From an uncultured Bacilli bacterium (GTDB lineage: Bacteria; Bacillota_I; Bacilli_A; RF39; UBA660), in contig CAKOOR010000001.1 of NCBI GenBank assembly GCA_934098505.1, positions 259,027 through 323,026 of the forward strand: a stretch of 64,000 bases of DNA, written 5' to 3'. The notes under the pieces are model-generated. The model was not told the origin of the DNA and searched no databases. It saw only the letters and a list, made by a program, of their open reading frames with translations. This document shows positions 15,416 to 15,696 of the stretch, one piece after another (the first letter of the stretch is position 1; every line of letters begins with the position of its first letter). A program made the translations under genes and the position numbers.

Positions 15416-15446
15416 TTTCATAGAGTATATAACTCTATGAAAGCTA
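15416..15446. repeat. Nested inverted-repeat copy a (a 30-bp sequence that is itself a hairpin)
   Basis: tttcatagagtatataactctatgaaagcta. Its reverse complement at 15665..15696 is identical except for A-run length. Confidence 0.8.
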
Positions 15447-15664
15447 AATATCGATATCTATTTTTAATTTATAGTATAAATATACCATATATTTTAGAGA
15501 TTTTAAAGAGTTTTTAATAACCTATTGTAGTCAAAATTGTAGTCAATTAAATTGCTTGTTTCTTTAGATATTAAAAGGGTTTTCAAAGCTTTTAATAGTC
15601 AAATAATCAATAATTTTTGTGGTCAAATTTTCTGGTCAAATACACATTTAATCCAGTAATTACT

Positions 15665-15696
15665 TAGCTTTTTCATAGAGTTATATACTCTATGAA
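15665..15696. repeat. Nested inverted-repeat copy b
   Basis: tagctttttcatagagttatatactctatgaa. The loop (TATAT versus ATATA) and the flanking TAGC/GCTA confirm inverted orientation relative to copy a. Confidence 0.8.

Follow-up and report, generated by a model that had tools for sequence, protein, structure and literature searches.

The intergenic region upstream of a gene for a 672-aa protein was found to contain what is very probably a site-specific invertible promoter (an inverton), one of many per genome in this lineage of uncultured, low-GC Bacilli. An earlier note on the window (the whole 64-kb stretch of DNA that was analysed) had proposed an invertible promoter switch at this position, and the proposal is supported by (i) inversions observed at orthologous loci; (ii) a conserved extended −10 element that points outward; and (iii) covariation of the centres of the paired sites. 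Taken as a whole, the element spans about 280 bp and consists of two 25-bp sites that bracket 230 bp (Table 1). A repeat search returned an inverted repeat with 26-nt arms (15417-15442 and 15671-15696) that are 100% complementary and separated by 228 nt, which confirmed the repeat pair described earlier. Each strand of the 64-kb window has a single copy of the 25-mer TTCATAGAGT-ATATA-ACTCTATGAA (0.00 occurrences expected from 100 shuffles), and a profile of the element matched the window at one place only (15405-15708, E 2e-60). Each site is itself a palindrome, in agreement with the hairpin nature previously assigned to each arm, and is composed of a 9-bp arm (TTCATAGAG), a 7-bp asymmetric centre and a second 9-bp arm (CTCTATGAA); this 9-7-9 partition was derived from the covariation between partners in 160 unique pairs. 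The overlap of the right site, TTATATA, is the reverse complement of that of the left site, TATATAA. The inverted orientation of the two copies, also noted before, is visible only in the centre (ATATA versus TATAT) and in the inner flank (AAAGCTAA versus TTAGCTTTTT, in which the length of the A-run differs).

The setting of the element is a region of about 28% G+C (window average), with a 242-aa ORF (14353-15081, downstream of rpsT and spoIIP) to the left and the 672-aa ORF, followed by MurT/GatD, to the right; from the end of the right site to the ATG at 15778 there are 81 nt. The tandem repeats reported within the segment were found again as two copies of ATTGTAGTCAA (15524-15534 and 15536-15546) and two copies of TGGTCAAAT. 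A truncated transposase remnant, which had been described nearby, was not confirmed, as the small ORFs in this vicinity were without a Pfam match. The switch region had no match in Rfam, and elsewhere in the window a T-box leader (RF00230, 99 bits) was detected at 4874-5060, where it overlaps the annotated start (5014) of a 1062-aa ORF (5014-8202). A 36-nt direct repeat of 75% identity was also observed between the inside of the left site (15448-15483) and the outside of the right site (15710-15745), and may be a trace of the origin of the switch.

Table 1. Coordinates of the predicted features of the switch region (window positions; the promoter, terminator-like element, recombination sites and boxes are assigned from sequence patterns)
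Feature	Positions	Strand	Remarks
Terminator-like element for the OFF transcript	15402..15442	−	left-site hairpin with 11-bp stem, then AUUUUACUUUU
Left recombination core site	15417..15441		arm TTCATAGAG 15417-15425, overlap TATATAA 15426-15432, arm CTCTATGAA 15433-15441; perfect inverted partner of the right site
Invertible segment, 230 bp	15442..15671		homologues at 177 other switches; promoter directed away from the 672-aa gene
Promoter in segment	15479..15507	−	−35 TTTAAA 15507-15502, 17-nt spacer, TG 15487-15486, −10 TATATT 15484-15479
Tandem T(A/G)GTCAA pair	15528-15534, 15540-15546	+	boxes at 12-nt spacing, upstream of the minus-strand promoter (about −55 to −75); conserved in the alignment
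TAGTCAA box	15596-15602	+	less conserved
Tandem TGGTCAA pair	15620-15626, 15633-15639	+	near the right site
Right recombination core site	15672..15696		arm TTCATAGAG 15672-15680, overlap TTATATA 15681-15687, arm CTCTATGAA 15688-15696
Regulated gene, 672-aa protein	15778..17796	+	RBS AAGGAAG 15764-15770

The predicted promoter within the segment would start transcription near 15472 and read leftward, away from the 672-aa gene. When 161 unique elements were compared, an extended −10 of the form TGnTAnnnT was found at one fixed aligned position and strand in 160, and the best sigma-70-like match fell at this same position in 140 of the 161; candidates on the plus strand were scattered, and no promoter on the other strand was conserved across the 161 elements. 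An alignment of 81 elements revealed on the minus strand a conserved CTTTAAAAT, a variable spacer and TG-n-TATATT. The −10 hexamer was detected as TATATT, TAAAAT, TATAGT, TATCAT or TATACT, with T1, A2, T6 and the TG constant throughout, a pattern that is the one expected of a working extended −10 and that suggests promoter activity. The TTGAC motifs read as −35 hexamers in the earlier note were thus misassigned, the conserved promoter being TTTAAA, 17 nt and TGg-TATATT on the minus strand. The statement that the plus strand has no promoter between the right site and the gene was borne out by a promoter scan, which returned no promoter-like site from 15697 to the ATG at 15778. Because the internal promoter is directed away from the 672-aa gene, the window copy is predicted to be in the OFF orientation.

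The left site may also serve to end the transcript made in this orientation. Its hairpin folds at −13.2 kcal/mol (z −7.4) with an AU-rich stem that includes three G-C pairs, and a terminator scan flagged the minus strand. It had been stated that neither hairpin is followed by a T-tract, which does not hold for the minus strand of the left copy, where the T-rich AUUUUACUUUU follows. This asymmetry extends to the related switches, as an outward run of at least four T beyond the site was present on the non-gene side of 40% of loci versus the gene side of 1.4% (Wilcoxon p 3.6e-12, n = 141). The hairpin and T-run of the left site would probably stop the OFF-state transcript.

The TTGAC motifs correspond to T(A/G)GTCAA boxes on the opposite strand. 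These boxes number about four per element and are confined almost entirely to one strand (mean of 3.99 versus 0.04 on the other), with a spacing of 12 or 13 nt, and are placed such that one tandem pair is upstream of the promoter and the other is near the far site. We consider them candidate binding sites for (i) an accessory protein; (ii) the N-terminal domain of the recombinase, as arm-type sites; or (iii) a transcription factor. The N-terminal 65 residues of the integrase discussed below had no relevant match in Pfam or the PDB, and for this reason an arm-binding role for the boxes is unsupported.

Related switches were collected by two scans. A search for the arms with a free A/T centre, limited to one genome per species, identified 75 loci, all of which belong to MAGs of uncultured Bacilli, largely from Hadza gut, or to 'Mycoplasma sp. 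CAG:956' and 'Tenericutes UMGS735'; a generic-site scan of metagenome contigs returned at least 120 stretches, mostly from human gut. When up to two substitutions per arm were allowed, the 200 listed loci together with the window contained at least 418 sites forming at least 178 pairs, with 252-268 bp between partners; contig ends accounted for 45 of the 62 sites without a partner. These modules (at least 178) are almost always located 20-100 bp upstream of genes from one family of N-terminally anchored proteins. The earlier note would have taken paired hairpins at many unrelated loci as evidence against a switch; taken literally such recurrence was found, yet it does not speak against the switch, since all of the pairs precede paralogues of one gene family.

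Comparison of the two sites within each pair defined the organization of the site. The centres of the partners were reverse complementary in 168 of 178 pairs despite the occurrence of at least 34 different 7-nt centres. Variants at position 10 were mirrored in the partner in 7 of 7 cases and at position 16 in the single case observed, and for positions 11-15 mirroring was seen in at least 153 of the 160 unique pairs. Arm variants (positions 1-9 and 17-25), on the other hand, were mirrored in just 2 of about 100 cases. Thus, the sites are composed of 9-bp arms around a 7-bp region that is matched between partners. Inverted arms flanking an overlap region are the general design of tyrosine-recombinase sites, as in the lox, FRT and att cores, and covariation limited to positions 10-16 has the core geometry that would be expected of such a site. 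The ten pairs with non-complementary centres (e.g., TTAAT/ATTTA and ATCCA/TGAAT), of which those at L041 (1558/1821), L053 (156/420), L060 (2366/2630) and L202 (2613/2879) were viewed singly, may be locked switches or the hybrid products of exchange between switches. A strict rule of one overlap address per switch was considered and rejected, as overlaps repeat within a genome and ATTAA is present four to six times in some MAGs. Adjacent switches shared an overlap in 1 of 25 pairs versus 1.8 expected, a comparison that does not inform on avoidance.

Direct support for inversion was obtained by comparing orthologous loci of different assemblies, the inner segments being homologous from locus to locus and their orientation definable. 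In two different human-gut assemblies (contigs L144 and L174), the upstream flanks were identical at 149 of 150 positions and the downstream flanks at 391 of 400, and the inner segments were identical at 239 of 239 positions as reverse complements versus 86 of 239 when compared directly. The locus belongs to a sister lineage and is orthologous to that of the window gene, the first 400 bp past the right site being 92% identical to the window. Four contigs of this sister-lineage locus were found in opposite orientations (L144 and L189 versus L125 and L174), and orientation also differed between different MAGs at other orthologous pairs (L070/L032, L059/L032, L013/L029 and L012/L040). Both orientations were present in two of 12 clusters defined by at least 95% identity in each flank. 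Since the shared sites (25 bp) are far shorter than assembly k-mers, the inverted contig path must be supported by reads.

With respect to the adjacent gene, 129 switches were oriented as in the window (OFF) and 26 were inverted (ON), and incomplete MAGs carried up to 13 switches, of which 0-3 were directed toward the gene; both counts fit a family in which most members are OFF. The ON orientation at the window locus was sought in contigs with the identical 672-aa protein, with three close variants of it or with the upstream 242-aa protein. All contigs of the window species (L001-L005 and L204-L207) were OFF, as were those with the close variants (L201-L203, proteins 86-91% identical to the 672-aa protein), and a locus-specific search of metagenome contigs with the right junction of the window, in which either orientation would be detectable, gave no match. 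From the behaviour of the relatives we infer that the window locus would switch as well, and that such switching would take place within a population.

The genes next to the switches are related to one another. All but one of the 141 examined encode a single BLAST-linked family of 214-677 aa with a K-rich N-terminus and a hydrophobic helix; the 672-aa protein of the window has the same arrangement, with a K-rich segment followed by a hydrophobic helix that could be a membrane anchor or a signal. An AF2 model of this protein (alignment of 32 sequences, mean pLDDT 51) placed a helix at residues 2-35 and was confident only at a beta-rich stretch of about residues 230-370. A total of 3016 homologues was detected at E<=1e-5, none of which has a Pfam domain or a name, and the family is very large and diversifying. 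Cluster representatives of these homologues were 70-100% identical to the query among the 120 matches listed, and two contigs, L206 and L207, end a few nucleotides into the 672-aa gene. The N-termini of the regulated proteins are without a lipobox cysteine and the proteins are therefore not lipoproteins; the label 'surface protein' is itself an assignment from the predicted anchor and the apparent phase-variable control.

A tyrosine recombinase was not found to be encoded in the 64-kb window by tblastn and profile searches, which is in accord with the earlier view that the cassette has no recombinase and that a trans-acting enzyme would be needed; in other contigs, however, such a gene adjoins the orthologous switch. 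On contig L004, which encodes an identical 672-aa protein, the left flank differs from that of the window and carries RmuC, an ORF of 603 aa and, in divergent orientation, a gene for a 355-aa protein in which Pfam identifies Phage_int_SAM_3 and Phage_integrase. Overall, a tyrosine recombinase gene was located 161-248 bp from a switch in nine contigs, L004 among them, most of these integrase-adjacent loci having been fetched for having sites, with the ascertainment bias that this brings. Seven metagenome loci, of which six are complete and one is cut by the contig end, have an orthologue of the 355-aa integrase (81-90% identity) at 161-195 bp from a switch; at an eighth, L140, the orthologue adjoins an unpaired site, and the L201 switch also has an integrase beside it. 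Across the switch from the integrase, six loci (L125, L140, L144, L174, L189 and L201) have the orthologue of the window gene, and L190 and L113 have other members of the family. An orthologue of 76% identity in the same RmuC synteny and a homologue of 50% identity had no site within 3 kb. The closest solved relative of the integrase is Tn1549 Int (6EMY, E 1e-15, residues 184-343), and no conjugative element was present with the 355-aa integrase.

In two unrelated contigs from organisms richer in GC (43% and 50% G+C), an integrase homologue of 33-36% identity is enclosed by a pair of inverted sites whose 10-bp arms are exactly those of the switch sites and whose centres are reverse complementary, the sites being 1185 and 1496 bp apart (L150 3661-4870; Ga0099364_10003446, L108 8397 to L184 379). 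An IS605-OrfB/TnpB-like ORF was observed just beyond the second of these site pairs. Such integrase-containing units could be an ancestral, self-contained form of the switch or could be a mobile unit. The 355-aa Tn1549/Tn916-Int-like enzyme is the candidate recombinase of the switches, an assignment that we consider somewhat more likely than not. In the flank on the integrase side (L144 3259-3421, and likewise in L189, L174, L201, L125 and L190) the hairpin of the site is followed by AAAATC(C/T)AGATTT and not by a T-run; in L004 this flank has a T6 run instead. The ATG of the integrase (RBS GGAGAG) is just 161 nt from the site. The arrangement suggests that the promoter, when the surface gene is OFF, would read into the recombinase gene and so might form a feedback loop or a master switch.

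The switch and gene of the window species were found behind three upstream contexts: (i) that of the window, shared by L001, L002, L204 and L205; (ii) that of L004; and (iii) that of L003. On the integrase side of L004, homology to the window ends no more than 2 nt from the outer edge of the left site. The break in L003 is about 95 bp upstream of the site, and where the window has the spoIIP block, the sequence before the L003 switch (1-3512) carries an ATPase gene of the T2SSE family together with three ORFs that are uncharacterised. These contexts suggest large rearrangements mediated by the sites. Overlaps are common to several switches within genomes, and crossover between switches with the same overlap would explain the different upstream flanks of the window and L004 and the position of the break at the site edge. 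The inner segments of the window and L144 are only about 68% identical, against 92% for the downstream flank, and the two switches have different overlaps (ATATA and ATCTA, respectively); exchange between switches that have an overlap in common would explain this divergence of the segments as well.

Explanations other than an invertible promoter were weighed against these data. The module is present in multiple copies per MAG, often at contig ends, and in other organisms larger units have an integrase between the same sites, features that would suit a MITE-like non-autonomous element with terminal inverted repeats whose differences in orientation are due to independent insertions. We regard this explanation as very improbable and rejected it, as target-site duplications were no more frequent than in shuffled-partner controls, the position of the module is fixed at 20-100 bp before paralogues of one gene family, and opposite orientations were found between 99% identical flanks with an inner segment that is 100% identical, which indicates inversion in place and not reinsertion. 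In addition, the centres at the two ends co-vary within a copy and differ between copies, a pattern that would not arise by the copying of a master element. That the two palindromes are instead operators of a DNA-looping dimeric repressor, bidirectional terminators or kissing-loop RNA hairpins, with no rearrangement at this locus, is likewise highly improbable. Each site is a perfect palindrome as would suit a dimer, the loops of the two hairpins are complementary and one of the hairpins is terminator-like; however, operators do not require that the centres of the two sites be reverse complementary, variants in the arms are not compensated within the hairpin, which argues against selection for RNA structure, and physical inversion was seen at orthologous loci. 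The terminator role is moreover compatible with the invertible promoter and is already included in that model.

An orientation-dependent effect could also arise if the promoter were external and the segment acted as a terminator or leader, as for cwpV of Clostridioides difficile. The stable hairpins formed by the sites and a good −10 (TATAAT at 15374-15379) upstream of the left site are in keeping with such an arrangement, which we nonetheless find unlikely: the upstream flank is not conserved (conservation in the alignment is 0.4-0.5 outside the sites) and in L004 is replaced up to the edge of the site, the internal extended −10 is the only motif that is conserved in position and strand, and the asymmetry of the T-runs fits transcripts that leave the element and not those that enter it.

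We thus favour an invertible promoter, and propose the following mechanism. The 230-bp segment, with its predicted extended −10 promoter and its four to five T(A/G)GTCAA boxes on a single strand, is bracketed by two lox-like inverted sites. The arms of these sites would be recognised by a tyrosine recombinase whose gene is elsewhere in the genome, and strand exchange inside the matching 7-bp overlaps would then invert the segment. In the orientation of the window, the promoter would fire to the left into the hairpin and U-tract of the left site, leaving the 672-aa gene OFF; once inverted, it would read to the right through the right site, which has no U-tract, and into the gene, turning it ON with a leader of about 140 nt. 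As the same module precedes at least 13 paralogous membrane-anchored genes per genome in this lineage, the cell surface could undergo phase variation in a combinatorial manner. That the promoter and the terminator are active, which enzyme acts as recombinase and what the boxes do are here predictions from comparative genomics. More speculatively, and with considerable doubt, the switches may constitute a genome-wide system in which (i) the site is both a recombination core and an insulating terminator stem; (ii) the 34 overlaps are addresses that keep most switches apart; and (iii) the switch near the integrase drives the surface gene or the recombinase alternately, and thereby acts as a master switch of all flipping rates.

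Several known systems resemble these switches in part. The sequence of the site retrieved unrelated primers only from the searchable literature. In fimS of E. coli (FimB/FimE, tyrosine recombinases) and Mpi of Bacteroides fragilis (a serine recombinase), a promoter segment between inverted repeats is flipped to turn surface structures ON or OFF. The switches described here share with both the short promoter-bearing segment between inverted repeats, and differ in that the recombination site on the non-gene side seems to be also a terminator stem; the 9-bp inverted repeats of fimS have not been reported as self-palindromic sites with locus-specific centres. Cre/loxP and Flp/FRT have the same layout of two inverted arms around a short asymmetric overlap. 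In those systems the overlap sets the polarity of the site and must match in the partners, and inverted sites lead to inversion. The layout deduced here from covariation differs in having arms of 9 bp versus 13 and an overlap of 7 bp versus 8, in forming a natural genome-wide set with 34 overlap variants, and in the one-stranded GTCAA boxes of the segment, of which loxP has none. In C. difficile, a single tyrosine recombinase, RecV, flips several short segments flanked by inverted repeats before genes for surface structures (cwpV and flgB). That organism is also a low-GC Firmicute in which one tyrosine recombinase serves several switches; however, the promoter of cwpV is outside and its segment acts by termination, whereas here the promoter is inside, and the switches described here are far more numerous per genome and are all before one paralogous family. 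The integrases of Tn916 and Tn1549 (PDB 6EMY and 6EN0) are the closest solved relatives of the catalytic domain and have the same pair of Phage_int_SAM_3 and Phage_integrase domains. Those enzymes excise and integrate conjugative transposons, whereas the enzyme here is at a fixed locus defined by RmuC synteny and is proposed to be an invertase.

The mpl (P35) family of Mycoplasma penetrans (Horino et al. 2003, as summarised in PMC2268961) is functionally the closest of the systems compared, with the multi-promoter inversion of Bacteroides also close. According to PMC2268961, most of the 38 mpl lipoprotein genes have their own invertible promoter, and the candidate recombinases, MYPE8180 and MYPE2900, are described as similar to Xer1, Mbr and HvsR. 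The functional resemblance is that of a multigene surface family at several loci, each gene with its own promoter and switched independently by a global recombinase; Bacteroides shares the use of one enzyme for many dispersed promoters (PMC2268961). The mpl products are lipoproteins, whereas the proteins here are anchored by an N-terminal helix without a lipobox. Further differences are that the organism has spoIIP and MurT/GatD and is therefore not a wall-less mycoplasma, that the candidate recombinase is nearest to Tn1549 Int among solved structures, and that the sites are 25-bp self-palindromes with variable 7-bp centres. Four distinctions from the mpl and Bacteroides systems may thus be drawn: a lox-like self-palindromic core with overlap variants, the apparent reuse of the site as a terminator stem, the one-stranded tandem boxes, and a Tn1549-Int-like candidate in a cell-walled organism. 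Neither Tenericutes nor Mycoplasma nor Bacilli is named in the text of the inverton survey DeepInverton (PMC11602134).

These results have bearing beyond the locus itself. From comparative sequence data alone, the probable crossover region of a recombinase site could be delimited exactly, and the switches account for many of the contig breaks in MAGs of the lineage. They also form a natural collection of short recombination sites that come with many different overlaps and that a single small integrase seems to serve; if the variants prove orthogonal, they could be of use in memory devices for synthetic biology. For the organisms, an uncultured low-GC lineage of Bacilli that is often present in human gut metagenomes, those of the Hadza included, the switches would mean that a dozen or more surface proteins are varied independently of one another, a capacity of relevance to immune evasion, phage resistance and colonisation.
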